A DNA stretch of 58,373 nt, the filler included, from a bacterium (GTDB lineage Bacteria > CLD3 > SB21), in assembly GCA_013360215.1 (NCBI GenBank). It is 3 parts of 3 records of this genome, joined end to end, with 100 filler letters (N's around TTAATTAATTAA, not from the genome) between each part and the next. Parts side by side here need not be neighbours in the genome. Positions count along the whole stretch, not along the records: positions 1 to 19,972 come from JABWCP010000037.1; 2 more parts are not named here. The stretch is one strand, 5' to 3'. The stretch's first letter is position 1. The number at the start of each line of letters is the position of its first letter. Positions 17,933 to 39,929 of this stretch are shown here, piece after piece. The position numbers and the translations under genes are program-made. The notes beneath the pieces are model-generated. The model was not told the origin of the DNA. It worked only from the letters and a program-made list of their open reading frames with translations, and made no database searches.

Positions 17933-19744
17933 CTACGGATCGCTTAATACTGCAATAGCTGCAGCACCCGGGCCGGCGTGGGTTGCGATGACGGTAGATA
18001 CATCGGTGATCAGGATATCATCGCGATCAATTTCATAATACCGGCTTAATTGCGTTGCATACCAATCGGCAATACCGATTGAGTTAGCGTGAGCGATACC
18101 AAAACGCGGTTTTTTTCTGTTTTTGGTGGTTGCTTTGACAAGGTCCATCACTTTACGCAGGGCATTGGAGTGACCGAAAGCCTTGGCGATGGGTACCACG
18201 GCGCCATCTTGTACAGTTAGCACTGGGCGAATGTTTAATAATTTGGCGATGGCTCCGCGTGCTTTACTTACGCGGCCGCCTTTGATGAGATAGTCCATGG
18301 TCTGCACGCTGATAAATACTTTCATGTTATTGCGGCAGTACTCCAGATGCTGAATGATTTTTTCAACCGGCGCGTTTTCGCGAATCATCGGCTCGATTTC
18401 TCGCACCATGACTCCGATACCGACGGATGCGCTCATCGAATCAAAACAAAATATTTTATCTTGGGCTACCTGACGTGCCATACTGAGGGCGCCTTGATAC
18501 GTGCCGCTGAGTTTGGATGAAAGGTGAATGGAAATTACGTTTTTGTAAATTTGTAAAAGGCGTTCGTACGATTCTTTAAATTTAGCCGGCGTCGGTTGCG
18601 AAGATTTGGGATGATCCGGTGAAGACGTCAATTTTTCATAAAATTTCTTCGGTGTCAAAGTAAGGCGGTCTATATAAATCTGTTCACCAAAATGTACATT
18701 GAGTGGAATGACATGAATGTGATTTCGACGGATATATTCGAGCGGGAGATCGCAGCACGAATCGATGGCAATCGCCGTGTCTTGAACATTCTCGGAGTGC
18801 GCATTGAGAAACTGCTGTTTCATATCGTCTATTTTGGTAGAAATCACGTGTCCATGATCGGCTAATACTTCAAATACGTCTTCCGGCGTATTGGAGTGCA
18901 AATGGATTTTGACTTTTTTGGTTGAGCCGGCCACAATCAGGGAATCGCCGAACTGGTTGAGACTTTCGCGGATTTTTTCGCGATCCATGTTTTCGCCGAC
19001 AAGCAGACATTCGGTACAAAACTGATACGTGATTTCTTCAAAGGCATGCTCATCAATGTGCGCTTCCATCGCTTCGTCTTCGGTTTCAGATAAACCTTGA
19101 CGCTTGATATCGGAAATGCGTCCGTTTTCTATGAAGTCCAGCACGCCTTCGAGCATGGTCACAAATCCTTGCGCGCCCGCATCCACTACACCGGCTTTCG
19201 CTAAGGCGGCCATTTGTTTAGGCGTATTGGCGAGCGACTGTTTGGCATCGGCAAGGCTTTCACGGAATAATTCGGAAAAATCATCCGTTTTATCGGCGTT
19301 TTTTTCTACGGATTTTCCCCAGTCGCGTATGACGGAGAGTATGGTGCCTTCGACCGGATTGGAAATCGCACTCCATGCGGATTTTGTTGCTTTTTGCACG
19401 GCATCAGAAAATTTTTTGGTCGTGCATTTGGCGCTGCCTTGCAATCCTTCATTCATGCCTTGAAAAAACTGCGCCATGATCACACCGCTATTGCCGCGCG
19501 CGCCCATCAGAGCCGAATCAGCCAACACGATCGCCATCGAATCAATCTCATGCAATTCTTCTTTTTCGACCGTCTCTGCGATGTTTTTCAATGTGGACGC
19601 CATATTGGTGCCCGTATCGCCGTCAGGAACCGGAAACACATTGATGTTATTGAGATATTCTTTTTTGTTGATAACGTGATTGCATCCGGCGATCACGGAG
19701 CGTTTGAGGCGAATGCCGTCTAAATACTTGATTTTGAGTCTCAA
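17933..19744 (-). CDS. DAK2 (FakA-like)-DegV (FakB-like) fusion, putative fatty acid kinase
   Basis: INVFPVPDGDTGTNM, GARGNSG, VVDAGAQG; then KSSQP, SSKLSGTY, LIKGGR, HAGPG; start reassigned to TTG 19744 behind AGGAGG. Confidence 0.9.
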   Translation of the reverse strand: MRLKIKYLDGIRLKRSVIAGCNHVINKKEYLNNINVFPVPDGDTGTNMASTLKNIAETVEKEELHEIDSMAIVLADSALMGARGNSGVIMAQFFQGMNEGLQGSAKCTTKKFSDAVQKATKSAWSAISNPVEGTILSVIRDWGKSVEKNADKTDDFSELFRESLADAKQSLANTPKQMAALAKAGVVDAGAQGFVTMLEGVLDFIENGRISDIKRQGLSETEDEAMEAHIDEHAFEEITYQFCTECLLVGENMDREKIRESLNQFGDSLIVAGSTKKVKIHLHSNTPEDVFEVLADHGHVISTKIDDMKQQFLNAHSENVQDTAIAIDSCCDLPLEYIRRNHIHVIPLNVHFGEQIYIDRLTLTPKKFYEKLTSSPDHPKSSQPTPAKFKESYERLLQIYKNVISIHLSSKLSGTYQGALSMARQVAQDKIFCFDSMSASVGIGVMVREIEPMIRENAPVEKIIQHLEYCRNNMKVFISVQTMDYLIKGGRVSKARGAIAKLLNIRPVLTVQDGAVVPIAKAFGHSNALRKVMDLVKATTKNRKKPRFGIAHANSIGIADWYATQLSRYYEIDRDDILITDVSTVIATHAGPGAAAIAVLSDP

Positions 19745-19826
19745 AATATCCTCCTGTAGTCGGTATGAACAAGCCGGAACGCTGATTTGAATGGATTGAA
19801 GCGTTCCAAATGGAAGTGCAGTCAAA

Positions 19827-19855
19827 AAATTAGATTAAAGGCCAATGAAAGTCAA
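19827..19855 (-). promoter_or_regulatory. Sigma70-type promoter of the DAK2-DegV operon
   Basis: TTGACT (19855-19850)-N17-TAATTT (19832-19827). Confidence 0.7.
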
Positions 19856-19874
19856 GCAATTGTAAATAATGTCA

Positions 19875-19972
19875 TGGGAAACGGAAGCAACATCGTACCC
19901 CCCTTTGGATAGAAGGGAAAGAAGGATTGAGATTGGTGATAGAACATTGCAGGAAGTCTTGCGAGCGTAGCG
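19875..19972. mobile_element. Terminus of a multicopy element, copy 1 (truncated by contig end)
   Basis: 98 nt identical to 39731-39828; begins TGGGAAACGG; contig breaks inside it. Confidence 0.75.
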
Positions 19973-20072
19973 NNNNNNNNNNNNNNNNNNNNNNNNNNNN
20001 NNNNNNNNNNNNNNNNTTAATTAATTAANNNNNNNNNNNNNNNNNNNNNNNNNNNNNNNNNNNNNNNNNNNN
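19973..20072. other. Artificial contig spacer
   Basis: N run with TTAATTAATTAA (stops in all frames) at 20017-20028. Confidence 0.98.
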
Positions 20073-20169
20073 TGATCGCTGCCGTCAATGTCGTCTTACC
20101 GTGATCCACGTGGCCTATCGTGCCCACATTCACGTGCGGCTTTGAACGGTTAAATTTCTCTTTTGCCAT
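20073..20169 (-). CDS. tuf: Elongation factor Tu, 5' fragment cut by contig end
   Basis: [41 protein letters not shown]. Confidence 0.97.
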
Positions 20170-20214
20170 GGCATCTCCTCGTATTGAGTGTCAAGAGTAA
20201 GTTGATGTTGTTCG

Positions 20215-20291
20215 TGGAGCCTGAGATCGGAATTGAACCGATGACCTCGTCCTTACCAAGGACGCGCTCTAACCATCTGAGCTACACAGGC
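20215..20291 (-). tRNA. tRNA-Thr(GGT)
   Basis: Cloverleaf GCCTGTG...CTCAGGC-T-CCA; anticodon arm CGTCC-TTGGTAA-GGACG; GGTTCAATTCC T-arm. Confidence 0.95.
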
Positions 20292-20312
20292 TTTGCAATA
20301 CTGCATTTATCG

Positions 20313-20385
20313 AGCGGGAGACGAGACTCGAACTCGCGACATCTTGCTTGGAAGGCAAGAACTCTACCAACTGAGTTACTCCCGC
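20313..20385 (-). tRNA. tRNA-Gly(TCC), CCA not encoded
   Basis: GCGGGAG...CTCCCGC-T; anticodon arm CTTGC-CTTCCAA-GCAAG. Confidence 0.95.
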
Positions 20386-20514
20386 AATTACATACAAAAT
20401 AATTTTTTTTAAAGAGCTTTTTTCGTTGGACAAGTAGCCTTTTCTAAGTTCAACACATGCTACACTTAAGAGCGAAAAGCTAATAAAAATATATAGTTAT
20501 CCAAACGAGGTGCA

Positions 20515-20543
20515 AATATATACAAAAAGCCCTCGCATGTCAA
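20515..20543 (-). promoter_or_regulatory. Sigma70-type promoter for tRNA-tuf
   Basis: TTGACA-N17-TATATT followed by TGCACCTCG. Confidence 0.8.
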
Positions 20544-35093: not shown

Positions 35094-37670
35094 TCATACC
35101 GATAATGTTCGTTTGGTTTCTACGCGTTCGTAGCACTCGACGACATCACCGGATTTGATATCATTGTATCCGTCAATGGTAAGACCGCACTCAAATCCCT
35201 GCGCAACTTCGCGGGCATCGTCTTTGAAACGCTTGAGTGATGAAAGTTTACCCTCATATACAACTTCGCCGTTGCGCAGAAGACGTATGGGCTGTGTACG
35301 ATTGACTTTTCCGTCCACCACATAACAACCGGCAACCGTACCCACCTTGGATATTTTGAAAATTTCACGTATTTCGACCATACCTGTGATTTTAATTTCA
35401 TAATCCGGTTCAAGCATACCTTCGAGCGCTTTGCGGATATCTTCGATACAGTCGTAAATAATGTTGTAATAGCGTATATCTATGTTTTCACGCTCGGCCA
35501 GTTTACGCGCATTGAGATTGGGGCGAACGTGGAAGCCGATGATGATCGCTCCGGAGGCCGATGCGAGTAACACATCTGATTCGGTAATTACGCCGACGCC
35601 GCGGTGAATGATATTGACCTTCACTTCGGGTGTACTGAGGCGTTGAATCGAATCACTGAGTGCTTCGACGGAACCATCCACGTCGCCTTTGAGTACGATC
35701 GCCAAATCCGATACTTTGCCGTCGCGCACTTGTTTAGAGATTTCATCCAGGGTAAGGAATTTGACGCGGCGATGGTCCTGCTCGCGCTTGAGCTGATGCC
35801 GTTTTGTGGCGATGTTACGGGCAATACGTTCGTTGGAGGTAACAACCAATTTATCCCCGGCTTGGGGCAAACCGTCAAAACCGATCAACTGCACCGGTGT
35901 TGAAGGACCGGCGGCTTTTACCGAATTACCGCGTTCATCAAACATAGCTTTCACACGACCGTAATAAATACCGCAAATAAACGGATCGCCGATGTGTAGA
36001 GTACCTGACTCGACCAGCGCTGTGGCCGTCGCTCCGCGTCCTTTGTCCAATTGTGACTCCACAATGGTACCTTTCGCGCGGCATTCTACTTTCGCTTTGA
36101 GTTCCAAAACATCCGCTTCGAGGAGAATCTTCTCCAACAATGTATCTACGTGTAAGCCTTTTTTAGCGGAGATTTCCACGCATTGGTATTTACCGCCCCA
36201 ATCTTCGACAAGAATATTTTTTTCAGAAAGTTGCGTTTTAATACGCATGGAATTGGCTTCAGGCTTATCAATCTTGTTAATCGCAATAATGATAGGTACG
36301 CCCGCGGCTTGCGCGTGATTAAGCGCTTCCACCGTTTGAGGCATGACATTATCGTCGGCCGCGACGACGATCACGACGATATCCGTAACCTGTGCACCGC
36401 GCGCACGCATTGCGGTAAAAGCTTCGTGACCCGGTGTATCCAAAAATGTGATTTTTCGACCTGAAGACAGCGTAACTTCGTAAGCACCGATATGTTGGGT
36501 GATCCCACCTGCTTCGCCGGCTACGACGTTCGCCTTACGTATATAGTCAAGAAGTGATGTTTTACCGTGATCAACGTGACCCATGATCGTCACGATCGGC
36601 GCACGGGTTGATTCCGGTACATCTTCCTGCTCTTCCAACTCTTCAATTTCATTTTCCTCGAACTCTTTGACTTGCTCGACATCGTATCCGAATTCACCCG
36701 CTACGAGCGTAATGGTATCCATATCCAGGCGTTGATTGATAGAAACCATCAATCCAAGCTGGAGACAGGTTTTAATAATTTCGCCTACAGCCACATCCAT
36801 CATATCGGCTAATTCGTGCGCCGAAAGGTATTCATGCACACGAATCACATTACGTTCTTCTTCGGACTCTGCCGCTTCGGCTTCTCTTTCTTCGCGTTTT
36901 TGCTTACGCCGTTTTTGACGCTCTTCGCCGGCCGTGCGCGAATCATCCATCTTAGCCATCGTTTCACGGATAGCCGCTTCGACGTCTTTTTCGTCTATCT
37001 TATTTTTCTTCTTCTTTTTCTTTTTATTATTCTTACCGCCTTTTTCTTCGACCACTAAAACTTCAGGCTCCGCTTCACCTTCTTCTTTGCCACCCTTCTT
37101 CTTTTTACGACGCGGGTCAGTTTCGTCTTTCATCGCTTGTTTTTCAAGCTGTTGGCGCGCTTTTTCAAACGCAAGCTTAAATTCCTCGATGGATTTTTGC
37201 GAGGATTTCAGGTTTTCTAGCAGATCAACTTTTTTCTTTTCTGAAGGATGCGTATCCGCGTTTGTATTTTTTGCTTCAACCGAGATCGTTTCATCGGCAG
37301 GCACAGCATGCGGCTCAGCCGACACCGGTTCAGTCTGATGCACTGTTGCGGGTTCTGAAACCTCCTTAACCGTCTTTTCATCTTTTACGGATTCCGGTTC
37401 TAATTCCGGTTCCGGTTTAGGCTCGGATGACAGCTCAAAAATAGACGTTTGTTTTTCGTCTTTTTTCTCTTTTTTGTCTTTTATTCTCTGATAGGTATCG
37501 GCGTGTTTTTTCTCTTTGGAAAACTTAGCCATTACCTTCTCGATCATTTCCTCATCGAGCCCGCTCATGTGATTTTTTACTTCTTTGAAGCCGCTCTTTT
37601 GAAGAAATGTTACGATTTCCTGATGGCTTACCAAAAGCTCTTTGGCAAGCTGAAATACTTTTTTGGACAT
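35094..37670 (-). CDS. infB: Translation initiation factor IF-2
   Basis: [44 protein letters not shown]. Confidence 0.99.
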
Positions 37671-37699
37671 AAATCCGCTTTTATGTAGTTAAGAAATAC

Positions 37700-39082
37700 T
37701 TATTCATTGGAAGACGTTTCCGTCGCCGGTTGCAGGTTCTCAATAACTGCGGCCAACCGACTGATGGCACGTTCGGGAATTCCTTCGACGTTTTTGATCT
37801 CTTCGATGGAAGCAATATCACCAAGTTTTACGAAACCTGCTACCAGTAATTTTTCGGCTACTGCTTTGGATACGCCTCGAACTTCGACGATCAACGAAGC
37901 TTCTGTATAAACTTCCGGCTGCGCCTCGGGTTTAGCCTCCGGGCGAACCGTCGGCTTAACAGTAGTTTCACGAATTGTTTCAGCTTCTGGAGTTTCGTTT
38001 TCGTCAACGATCTCGTCCGCTGCTTCTTCGACGTGCGCTTCGCCGCTTAATTCGCTGTATTTAATTGTTTCGATTTGAAAGCCGGTCAGACGTGCGGCTA
38101 AGTTTATATTTTGACCGAAGCGACCGACCGCGATGGACATCTCATCGTCATTGATAACAGCCAAGGCTTTTTTGTCGGTGGTATCCACTTCGACACGCAA
38201 GGGTTTGGCCGGACTCAACGCGCGAGAAATAAAAATTTCCGCGTCAGGACTCCAACTGACAATATCAATTTTTTCGTTATTAAGCTCTTTGACAATCGCC
38301 TGAATACGTACGCCTTTCATGCCGACACAAGCACCCACCGCGTCAATACGTTTATCGTTTGAAAATACGGCGATTTTCGTACGCTCACCCGGATCACGGG
38401 CAATAGCTTTGATTTCGATAATACCATCGTATATTTCAGGTACTTCGTTTTCAAACAAACGTTGAAGAAATTCGGGTTGTGCACGGGATACCACGATACG
38501 CGGGCCGCGCGGATCATCCACGACATCTTTGATAACGGCACGCACCGTATCACCGCGTTTGTAACGTTCATTGGAAATTTGTTCCATTTTGGGCATGATA
38601 AGTTCGGTGCGCTCAAAACTGATATAAATTTCATTTTTGTTGATCTGGCGGATCTCACCGACAACGATTTCGCCGATACGGTTTTTAAATTCGTCCATGA
38701 TCAGTTTGCGCTCGATGTCTCGTATTTTCTGATTGAGTGTCTGACGTGCACTGATAATAAGACGACGACCGAAACTTGCCGGATCAATGATATGTACATA
38801 ATCGTCACCGACTTTCATATCCGGATCCATTTTTTGAGCATCTTCAATGGAAATCTCGGCCACAGGATTTGTTACCGGATCGGCAACAACAACGTTTTGG
38901 TAAATTTCAATTGCCGGTTTGTCTAAGTTAACGATCACATCAAAGTTGTCCGTTGAGCCGTACTTTTTTTTGATCATCATTTTAAAAATTTCCTCGATGA
39001 CCAAATTGAGTTCATCCTTCTCAATGTTTTTTTCACGGGCAATCTGCGTAAACGCATCGACTATCATGCCACCGTGTTCCAT
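37700..39082 (-). CDS. nusA: Transcription termination factor NusA
   Basis: EVPEIYDG, ARDPGERTKIAV, VGACVGMKGVRIQ; acidic linker and HhH-like tail. Confidence 0.98.
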   Translation of the reverse strand: MEHGGMIVDAFTQIAREKNIEKDELNLVIEEIFKMMIKKKYGSTDNFDVIVNLDKPAIEIYQNVVVADPVTNPVAEISIEDAQKMDPDMKVGDDYVHIIDPASFGRRLIISARQTLNQKIRDIERKLIMDEFKNRIGEIVVGEIRQINKNEIYISFERTELIMPKMEQISNERYKRGDTVRAVIKDVVDDPRGPRIVVSRAQPEFLQRLFENEVPEIYDGIIEIKAIARDPGERTKIAVFSNDKRIDAVGACVGMKGVRIQAIVKELNNEKIDIVSWSPDAEIFISRALSPAKPLRVEVDTTDKKALAVINDDEMSIAVGRFGQNINLAARLTGFQIETIKYSELSGEAHVEEAADEIVDENETPEAETIRETTVKPTVRPEAKPEAQPEVYTEASLIVEVRGVSKAVAEKLLVAGFVKLGDIASIEEIKNVEGIPERAISRLAAVIENLQPATETSSNE

Positions 39083-39141
39083 GCTGCCTCCGATAAATGG
39101 TTCACTATATTAATTTGTTTTCTAATTTATTCTTTTTACAA

Positions 39142-39609
39142 CTACCACTTCAGTTTTATCTTAGCCTGTTTAATCTGGCTAAGTTCAATGGTGATATCTG
39201 AAGTTTGTTTTTTTGCTAACTGGACTCGAAGCGTAACATTATTATCTCCCACGCCAACCACAGTTCCTTCCATTGTTTTATCGCCTTGGTCCGATAAATA
39301 TGTCATTATTATGGTTCTGCCCATGTTTTTGCGAAATTGCCAATCTTGTGAGATCGGACGCTCCAAACCGGGAGACGAAACTTCGAGAAGATAATTTTCA
39401 CCTAAAAAATTTTCCGCATCAAGAACTGTCTCAATTTCACGGCTAAATTCACGACAGCGGTCTATTATTATCCCTTTTTCACTATCGAGAAATACACGCA
39501 ACATATAACGACCGGATGTGGATTTCAAATCAATATCCACAATTTTAAATTCAGTATTTTCAATAATTTTACTGACTATGTTTCGTATACGCGTTTGTAA
39601 ATTATTCAC
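39142..39609 (-). CDS. rimP: Ribosome maturation factor RimP
   Basis: LRVFLD..GI..D.C, YLLEVSSPGLERP; start reassigned to GTG 39609, downstream of promoter and leader. Confidence 0.92.
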   Translation of the reverse strand: MNNLQTRIRNIVSKIIENTEFKIVDIDLKSTSGRYMLRVFLDSEKGIIIDRCREFSREIETVLDAENFLGENYLLEVSSPGLERPISQDWQFRKNMGRTIIMTYLSDQGDKTMEGTVVGVGDNNVTLRVQLAKKQTSDITIELSQIKQAKIKLKW

Positions 39610-39624
39610 TTTTATAACTTTATG

Positions 39625-39657
39625 AAAACAAAAAAGTGGGTCTTGCGAACCCACTCC
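39625..39657 (-). promoter_or_regulatory. rimP leader terminator hairpin
   Basis: AGTGGGTTC-GCAA-GACCCACT-TTTTTGTTTT: GNRA-capped terminator, matching the described rimP leader. Confidence 0.8.
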
Positions 39658-39682: not shown

Positions 39683-39711
39683 AATATAAAGCTTCTTTTT
39701 ACGTAATGCAA
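39683..39711 (-). promoter_or_regulatory. Sigma70-type promoter of rimP-nusA-infB
   Basis: TTGCAT (39711-39706)-N17-TATATT (39688-39683), just upstream of the leader hairpin. Confidence 0.72.
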
Positions 39712-39730
39712 GTATTTTTTGATTCAACTT

Positions 39731-39829
39731 TGGGAAACGGAAGCAACATCGTACCCCCCTTTGGATAGAAGGGAAAGAAGGATTGAGATTGGTGATAGAA
39801 CATTGCAGGAAGTCTTGCGAGCGTAGCGA
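39731..39829. mobile_element. Terminus of a multicopy element, copy 2 (truncated by contig end)
   Basis: Identical to 19875-19972 plus one base. Confidence 0.75.
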
Positions 39830-39929
39830 NNNNNNNNNNNNNNNNNNNNNNNNNNNNNNNNNNNNNNNNNNNNTTAATTAATTAANNNNNNNNNNNNNNN
39901 NNNNNNNNNNNNNNNNNNNNNNNNNNNNN
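39830..39929. other. Artificial contig spacer
   Basis: N run with TTAATTAATTAA at 39874-39885. Confidence 0.98.

Follow-up and report, generated by a model that had tools for sequence, protein, structure and literature searches.

The stretch of DNA analysed here (the window: 58,373 nt of genome assembly GCA_013360215.1, from an uncultured bacterium) consists of three contigs with artificial spacers between them, of which the first ends at position 19972 and the second at 39829, and both of these finish in the same repeat. Judged from sequence comparison, the repeat is very probably (about 0.9) the left end of an insertion sequence (IS) of approximately 1.27 kb, related to the IS481 family and present in several copies in its host, whose family appears to land 19 nt (in one clade, 14 nt) upstream of the −35 element of promoters. 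The host belongs to the Fibrobacterota–Chlorobiota–Bacteroidota (FCB) group, its NusA being at most 70% identical to proteins from metagenome-assembled genomes named ‘Bacteroidota bacterium’.

The opening of the repeat, TGGGAAACGGAAGC..., is present exactly twice in the window, at 19875 and at 39731, in both cases on the plus strand, and was not matched in 100 shuffles. Copy 1 runs for 98 nt up to the spacer and copy 2 for 99 nt (one additional A), and the bases 5′ of the two are unrelated (...GCAATTGTAAATAATGTCA in copy 1, ...GTATTTTTTGATTCAACTT in copy 2). The earlier note on this DNA had described just this, the same 98-nt sequence ending contigs 1 and 2 with an abrupt start and unrelated flanks, and both direct reading and a repeat search bear it out. 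For both copies, the remainder of the element of about 1,269 nt lies outside the window.

A multicopy insertion sequence and its relatives

The end of contig 1 (window 19000–19972) was compared with four public activated-sludge runs from four studies (X1, X7, X8 and X14). In every one of them a separate contig begins exactly at 19875 (1,269 nt in X1 and X8, 1,272 nt in X14, and a broken 487 nt in X7), and this element contig is deeper than the flank throughout (45.3 vs 6.4, 708.7 vs 117.1, 67.2 vs 13, and 18.2 vs 2.9–5.4). Several contigs with different left flanks stop within the first 30 nt of the repeat. Such a pattern would arise had the assembler collapsed the copies of the element, each contig then stopping k−1 bases into the repeat, as de Bruijn assemblers do. 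Flanks carried cleanly by a single contig placed TTGCTT 19 nt away in X7 and TTGCTA 18 nt away in X14; two-contig loose-end consensus flanks (X1; X8 at 19874 and 19875) were excluded, being mosaics that take the alphabetically lower letter wherever the contigs differ. Exact-word scans returned 0 matches for a 47-mer in the genome contig collection and for a 24-mer in the metagenome contig collection, and the five nearest genomes by NusA gave chance 18-nt matches to the repeat only. The suggestion that the repeat belongs to a mobile element has held up (it is multicopy, its flanks are unrelated, and its relatives have inverted repeats and a transposase), and the worry that it might be an adapter or assembly artefact is answered by its own contig, starting at 19875 in 4/4 runs, and by its varied flanks.

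One variant was seen, in X8 only, at 19874/19875: the contig with the Dak2/DegV flank follows the element's first seven bases with 19 additional ones, and a T has become A at the point of return to normal sequence. An indel variant of the left repeat is one possible explanation; another is the stump of a related element's end into which a second copy has inserted.

Among 19 genomes of the relatives' class, one (G017) matches the repeat, with 83% identity over nt 1–63. Its copy (L083, 1501–2230; about 730 nt) is internally deleted yet keeps both inverted repeats around a frameshifted remnant of a DDE transposase, and 18 nt separate its left end from TTGCAT-N17-TAAAAT, ahead of a PD40-repeat gene. 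When the remnant was used as a query it recovered 503 protein clusters (expectation value E ≤ 0.001), mostly of 350–370 aa and from contigs of 1.2–1.9 kb, the closest being P0002 (83% identity). The family is thus large, and most of its members are environmental. Neither the other 18 genomes of the relatives' class/phylum nor five long-read KSB1/Calditrichota-type genomes yielded the transposase, an empty answer there showing nothing, and tblastn against 72,556 plasmid records gave no transposase match at E ≤ 1e-20.

Two further features of G017 may be recorded. The relic is missing the N-terminal DNA-binding portion of its transposase, making it a possible non-autonomous derivative. The genome also encodes two short RpoD-like sigma factors (L165 1357–2214, and L166) of approximately 285–289 aa, scoring 263 and 258 bits against a TIGR02393 cut-off of 354; their size resembles that of the short primary sigma of Bacteroidota.

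The anatomy of the family was drawn from a profile scan of metagenome contigs, which yielded at least 551 relatives among at least 599 pattern matches, the best 80 being kept as loci (L085–L164). The left end reads T-GGGA, 11 bases, then CATCGTACCCCC, as part of inverted repeats of about 30 bp; the right end mirrors this in inverted form, is shorter by one base and extends over the final codons of the transposase gene. In the closest dozen of the best 80 loci, left repeats are matched by the window's first 30 nt at 26–28 of 30 positions. Thirty-eight loci had two ends and 15 nt of flank. Their first base is T in 35/38 and their last base T in 38/38, and they span 1,188–1,512 nt, a range that includes the 1,269 nt of the window's element. 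The 15 nt immediately outside the two ends are identical at 15/15 positions in six of these loci and at 14/15 in one, the duplication abutting the first T of the element. Pairing of left and right flanks, proposed in the earlier note as a way to find target duplications, was therefore productive in part: a 15-bp duplication is seen in 7/38 of the relatives' loci and is not clear in the rest.

The 98-mer is open in each of its three minus-strand frames (window 19875–19907), and the left repeat read backwards ‘encodes’ KGGYDV.... The reason is that the transposase open reading frame (ORF) runs on into the right inverted repeat, its C-terminus reading ...RGYD(L/V)IxYP in the right ends of L085–L164.

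The transposase of the family is encoded by a single ORF of about 360 aa, with N-terminal helix-turn-helix domains (two or three units) followed by a DDE core. For three proteins the best NCBIfam match was IS481 (NF033577; E from 4e-29 to 1e-33, model positions 2–282 of 284), at 102, 115 and 117 bits, scores that fall below the curated cut-off of 224 bits; other NCBIfam matches were to IS3 and, in the N-terminal part, IS630. Residues D151, D225 and E269, the DDE triad, are invariant in an alignment of 17 sequences. Pfam returned helix-turn-helix domains and weak matches to rve_2/rve_3, and no Mutator-type family at E ≤ 0.01. A predicted model (mean predicted local distance difference test score, pLDDT, 76) matched IS21 IstA (E 1.5e-8), TnsB and retroviral integrases in Foldseek. 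In NCBI these proteins bear only the names ‘helix-turn-helix domain-containing’ or ‘hypothetical’. The transposase is thus distantly IS481-like, of the integrase (RNase H) fold, and not Mutator-like. A DDE enzyme of integrase/IS481 type rather than a Mutator-like one had been envisaged if the ends proved to be TG...CA; NCBIfam, Pfam and the fold match agree on the class, but the ends themselves are T-GGGA...TCCC-T, not strict TG...CA.

Spacing from predicted promoters

Left ends could be located in 61 cases among the best 80 loci, giving 50 non-redundant left flanks of at least 50 nt, with 55 right flanks as the control. With offsets counted outward from the element, 22 of the 50 left flanks have TTG at offset 19, and 39 have it at offset 14, 18, 19 or 20, where 4.6 would be expected (background 0.024; binomial P ~1e-22 for the peak). 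The match extends beyond these three bases: 21/50 left flanks contain a perfect TTGACA, and a hexamer agreeing with the −35 consensus at four or more of six positions lies at offsets 12–22 in 41/50. A −10 hexamer (≥4/6) follows at a spacer of 16–18 nt in 30 of these 41 flanks (shuffles: mean 10.35, maximum 17), and TAnnnT at the same spacing in 25 (shuffles: mean 4.0, maximum 10). No TTG offset rose above 2 matches in the 55 right flanks. In 22 of the 26 loci with enough flank, an ORF (≥60 aa) directed away from the element starts within 350 nt; this is a mechanical count that has no control. Both window copies (19 nt), the two run flanks and the G017 copy fit the same rule, at 18–19 nt.

The hexamer lies 4 nt beyond the 15-bp duplication in the 19-nt class and overlaps it by one base in the 14-nt class; lying outside the target duplication, it is therefore native to the target rather than supplied by the element. 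A quick maximum-likelihood tree was built from 69 transposases, leaving out the G017 remnant (L083, L084), L138, and rows with stops or fewer than 300 aa. In this tree the 13–15 nt class forms one clade (100% support in the Shimodaira–Hasegawa-like approximate likelihood ratio test, SH-aLRT) that takes in 8/9 labelled rows, the sole 13–15 nt row outside it, L128, being ambiguous (it also has TTGAAT at 19). Spacing is therefore a property of the transposase lineage.

On the evidence of these flanks, the whole family is one that inserts in a single orientation next to predicted sigma70-type promoters, with the left end (the 5′ side of the transposase) facing the promoter. From two copies, the earlier note had proposed insertion at a fixed short distance upstream of a sigma70-type −35 box, in one orientation and with the promoter intact. 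That rule holds across the family, in 39/50 left flanks.

Several observations weigh against this reading. The transposase gene of the window's own element is not within the 98–99 nt present, and that element is assigned to the family by its length, its inverted-repeat match and the G017 relative. The element contig has approximately 5–7 times the depth of the flank in 4/4 runs, a ratio that is not the same as a copy number. Twenty-nine of the 38 two-ended loci lack a clear 15-bp duplication (3–8/15 matches), and to these may be added one locus with 11 matches and one that is offset by a base; such loci may reflect assemblers having joined ends that come from different copies, or recombination among copies. 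Nine of the 50 left flanks have no hexamer with ≥4/6 matches at offsets 12–22. The tree comes from a quick search. Lastly, a strict promoter scanner called neither of the window promoters, both of which are weak by comparison with the Escherichia coli consensus, and the promoters are all predicted.

As a mechanism, strand transfer would take place about 4 and about 19 nt upstream of the hexamer, roughly at −40 and −55 from the transcription start, which would seat the transposition complex directly upstream of the −35 element. The predicted promoter points away from the element, and the core promoter and its gene are left intact, everything upstream of about −55 being replaced by the element. 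The complex may dock on the −35 hexamer, either by its own reading of TTGACA or through contact with bound sigma region 4 or RNA polymerase, and a fixed protein geometry may set the cut sites, which would explain spacing as a lineage trait. The likely benefit is a safe landing site without gene breakage, which would also explain copies beside essential operons such as rimP-nusA-infB.

Two accounts of how the hexamer might be found stand close to even odds, each falling a little short of them. The transposase may read (C)TTGACA directly with its own DNA-binding domain, needing neither sigma factor nor RNA polymerase, in which case the enrichment of −10 hexamers and genes would come from selection, insertions beside TTGACA inside genes being lost. 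Direct reading suits the conservation of the hexamer, which in the 18 offset-19 flanks (T18, T17, G18, A17, C15, A13) far exceeds that of the −10 positions (just T12, A11, T11), and it suits the bias upstream of the hexamer, with C or G in 17/18 flanks at the third position before it and C in 11/18 at the first; these positions are not known to be read by sigma. A transposase with two or three helix-turn-helix units points the same way. However, the 18 flanks were pre-selected for ≥4/6 matches, which inflates their conservation, the window's own element tolerates TTGACT, TTGCAT, TTGCTT and TTGCTA, in which TTG alone is constant, and a −10 enrichment of about threefold to sixfold over shuffles would need strong selection. 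Alternatively, protein contacts may tether the transposase to sigma region 4 or RNA polymerase on the promoter. The targets do resemble complete promoters (a −35, a spacer of 16–18 nt, a −10, and a gene reading away), and the cut sites would bracket about −40 to −55, close to the positions that sigma region 4 and the alpha C-terminal domains occupy in established promoter architecture. Against tethering stand the extra base bias upstream of the hexamer and a hexamer that is probably more strongly conserved than in ordinary promoter sets. Tethering is also what has been proposed for TnGBS/ISLre2, and these unrelated Mutator-like elements behave likewise, according to the part of PMC3942029 drawn on here. 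A predicted complex of the transposase with sigma region 4 of G017 scored 0.16 and 0.12 (mark 0.32) and carries no weight either way. The idea in the earlier note that targets are picked by the position of sigma or RNA polymerase rather than by DNA sequence therefore survives as to a fixed position at the promoter, but not as to the preference for protein over sequence: a near-invariant TTGACA with its preceding C fits direct reading at least equally.

Other explanations fare much worse. It is highly improbable that the repeat acts as a mobile promoter or as a regulatory cassette, bringing a −35/−10 pair to neighbouring genes. The element always adjoins a promoter-like site, and insertion sequences that supply outward promoters are common; nevertheless, the hexamers of different copies lie in mutually unrelated flanks, fall outside the 15-bp duplication and vary (TTGACT, TTGCAT, TTGCTT, TTGCTA), and were therefore in the target before insertion. 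Scarcely credible is the proposal that the repeat arose as an assembly, adapter or chimeric artefact, or as a non-mobile duplicate (for example, the flank of an rRNA operon), its equal spacing being due to chance. There are only two window copies, both at contig ends, and two large collections hold no exact match, but the repeat starts a separate contig in each of the four runs, which come from four studies, has a G017 homologue with both inverted repeats and a transposase remnant, and shares its anatomy with the best 80 metagenome loci; moreover, an Rfam scan of the window found two tRNAs only and no known RNA in the repeat. Among named candidates, IS110/bridge-RNA and IS200/IS605-type elements were ruled out, the junction-adjacent bases not being conserved, as was a group II intron, which has the wrong 5′ end; an rRNA-operon flank was dropped, a 1.27-kb unit with inverted repeats and a transposase explaining the data.

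Returning to the IS481-related insertion sequence, a broader proposition can be put forward tentatively, at rather less than even confidence. A widespread family with an integrase fold may represent an independent second solution to promoter targeting, docking on the housekeeping −35 element, via sigma region 4 or a sigma-like reading of TTGACA, and cutting at two points 15 bp apart in a register (19 or 14 nt) set by lineage. If true, such elements would pinpoint real promoters to the base in never-cultured phyla, and could be used as compact single-protein tools that insert at a set position upstream of any sigma70 promoter.

Genes and other features of the window

Coordinates of the two element ends, the adjoining predicted promoters and the genes that these would serve are collected in Table 1. 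Direct reading upheld the −35/N17/−10 layout reported at exactly 19 nt from each repeat, on the minus strand and with the promoters intact, and ORFs and Pfam matches confirmed the target genes as DAK2-DegV and rimP-nusA-infB. The loose pattern TTG-N20-TAnnnT has 32 matches on both strands of the window (2.7e-4 per position; shuffle mean 39). It is unlikely that the second copy has the pattern at the same offset and strand by chance, bearing in mind that n=2 and that the pattern was picked after looking.

Table 1. Element ends, predicted promoter hexamers, target genes and spacers in the window.
Feature	Position	Strand	Remarks
IS copy A, left end	19875..19972	+	Left inverted repeat (~first 30 nt, TGGGAAACGGAAGCAACATCGTACCCCCCT) and start of untranslated leader; exact repeat; stopped by contig end
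Putative 15-bp target duplication, left side of copy A	19860..19874	.	Inferred from relatives; right junction outside window
−35-like hexamer TTGACT, Dak2/DegV gene	19850..19855	-	19 nt from end of IS copy A; offset is the family mode
−10-like hexamer TAATTT	19827..19832	-	17 nt past TTGACT; matches TTG-N20-TAnnnT
Copy A target gene, fatty-acid-kinase-like fusion Dak2 + FakA-like_M + DegV	17933..19744	-	Pfam DegV 4.7e-84, Dak2 6.7e-39
IS copy B, left end	39731..39829	+	98 nt identical to copy A, plus 1 base before contig end
Putative 15-bp target duplication, left side of copy B	39716..39730	.	Inferred from relatives
−35-like hexamer TTGCAT, rimP-nusA-infB operon	39706..39711	-	19 nt from end of IS copy B
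−10-like hexamer TATATT	39683..39688	-	17 nt past TTGCAT; matches TTG-N20-TAnnnT
Copy B target operon, rimP-nusA-infB	35094..39609	-	rimP 39142-39609, nusA 37700-39082, infB 35094-37670; Pfam RimP_N 2.1e-22, NusA_N 2.4e-29
Artificial spacer, non-biological	19973..20073	.	N runs around TTAATTAATTAA (at 20017-20028)
Second artificial spacer	39830-39929		N runs around TTAATTAATTAA (at 39874-39885)

The likely start of the Dak2/DegV fusion is a TTG at 19744, behind AGGAGG. Within this gene, high-depth contigs from other organisms match a 34-nt stretch (window 19491–19524) in three runs, differing at 2–3 positions; a conserved coding motif is the probable reason. The leader that separates the predicted rimP promoter from the rimP start codon contains a terminator-like hairpin (10 pairs and a T run; 39633–39657, minus strand). 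It might act as an attenuator for rimP-nusA-infB, NusA being known in other bacteria to regulate its own expression by way of terminators in the leader.

In its opening stretch (window 20074–20543), contig 2 starts within the first codons of an EF-Tu gene on the minus strand, which may be another collapsed repeat. Upstream of EF-Tu are two tRNA genes (20218–20291 and 20313–20385) and a perfect TTGACA-N17-TATATT at 20515–20543; the host therefore uses canonical −35 boxes.

Significance and comparison with known systems

Target choice decides whether a transposon harms its host. That an unrelated, integrase-type family with a different geometry follows the same rule points to a convergent ‘safe harbour’ strategy, and gives two systems to compare on how a transposase finds the −35 region. 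The rule would explain the persistence of copies beside essential operons, here rimP-nusA-infB, and the recurrent contig breaks in intergenic regions of metagenome-assembled genomes. It would also offer a free annotation resource, in which every junction points to a promoter in uncultured bacteria, and a warning to annotators that a TTGACA box beside such a repeat belongs to the host gene. In the literature searched, mostly open full text and without ISfinder or TnPedia, promoter targeting is provisionally confined to the Mutator-like TnGBS, ISLre2 and ISKra4, with none for IS481-like elements. The behaviour itself is thus already known, and promoter targeting by an unrelated, non-Mutator class of transposase would, provisionally, be its second case.

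By anatomy the family resembles IS481, having a single ORF that codes for N-terminal helix-turn-helix domains and a DDE core, a length of 1.0–1.5 kb, a full-length profile match and a 15-bp duplication. IS481 duplications range from 2 to 15 bp, so that 15 bp is the upper class, and IS481EU duplications fall into classes of 4, 15 and 25 bp, members with 15-bp duplications being ISMac4 and ISA0963-1 (PMC10045372); the likeness to these two is by description only, through the 15-bp duplication. IS481 termini are TGT...ACA (PMC10045372; 10.1101/2022.12.17.520857), in contrast to the T-GGGA...TCCC-T found here, and the word ‘promoter’ is absent from the IS481EU paper (PMC10045372). The family is a divergent IS481 relative, below the curated score and without the terminal TGT...ACA.

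Distant relatives of IS481 and IS3 are also found in the IS1202 family, whose ISTde1 subgroup has 15–17 bp duplications, and whose sister subgroup ISAba32 shows oriented, site-specific insertion by XerCD sites (10.1101/2022.12.17.520857). Both of these subgroups have TGT at both ends and the IS1202 subgroup has it at the right end only, and in the portion of that source drawn on promoter targeting is not reported for the ISTde1 subgroup (10.1101/2022.12.17.520857). The ISNCY/IS1202 model gave a weak N-terminal match in 1/3 proteins (E 8.5e-6, 25 bits vs a cut-off of 250). The catalytic fold is like that of IS21 IstA, TnsB of Tn7 and CRISPR-associated transposons (CAST), and retroviral integrases (Foldseek E 1.5e-8 to 1e-4), although identity to these is 10–16%, TM-scores (query-normalised) are 0.24–0.42, there is no helper ATPase gene here, and the structures are silent on target choice.

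In behaviour the closest likeness is to TnGBS/ISLre2 and, more weakly, the ISKra4 group, Mutator-like elements with 8–9 bp repeats that insert in an oriented manner 15–17 bp upstream of −35 boxes, fixed orientation being accompanied by asymmetry between the two inverted repeats (PMC3942029, in the part consulted). In a further, partly consulted account, ISLre2 and ISKra4 alone are singled out for insertion 50–250 bp from genes (PMC9208149). The present family shares with TnGBS/ISLre2 an oriented insertion at a fixed short distance upstream of a sigmaA/sigma70 −35 box that leaves the promoter intact. Whereas TnGBS, ISLre2 and ISKra4 have a Mutator-like (p-MULT) DDE transposase and 8–9 bp repeats with a conserved terminal C, the enzyme here has an integrase fold and is IS481-like, the duplication is of 15 bp and the terminal base is T; and whereas TnGBS/ISLre2 insert 15–17 bp away, with a peak at 16 bp measured from the right repeat, the distance here is 19 nt (the mode) or 14 nt measured from the left end (PMC3942029). 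The element works like TnGBS/ISLre2, yet departs from that group in each feature of transposase, repeat and distance.

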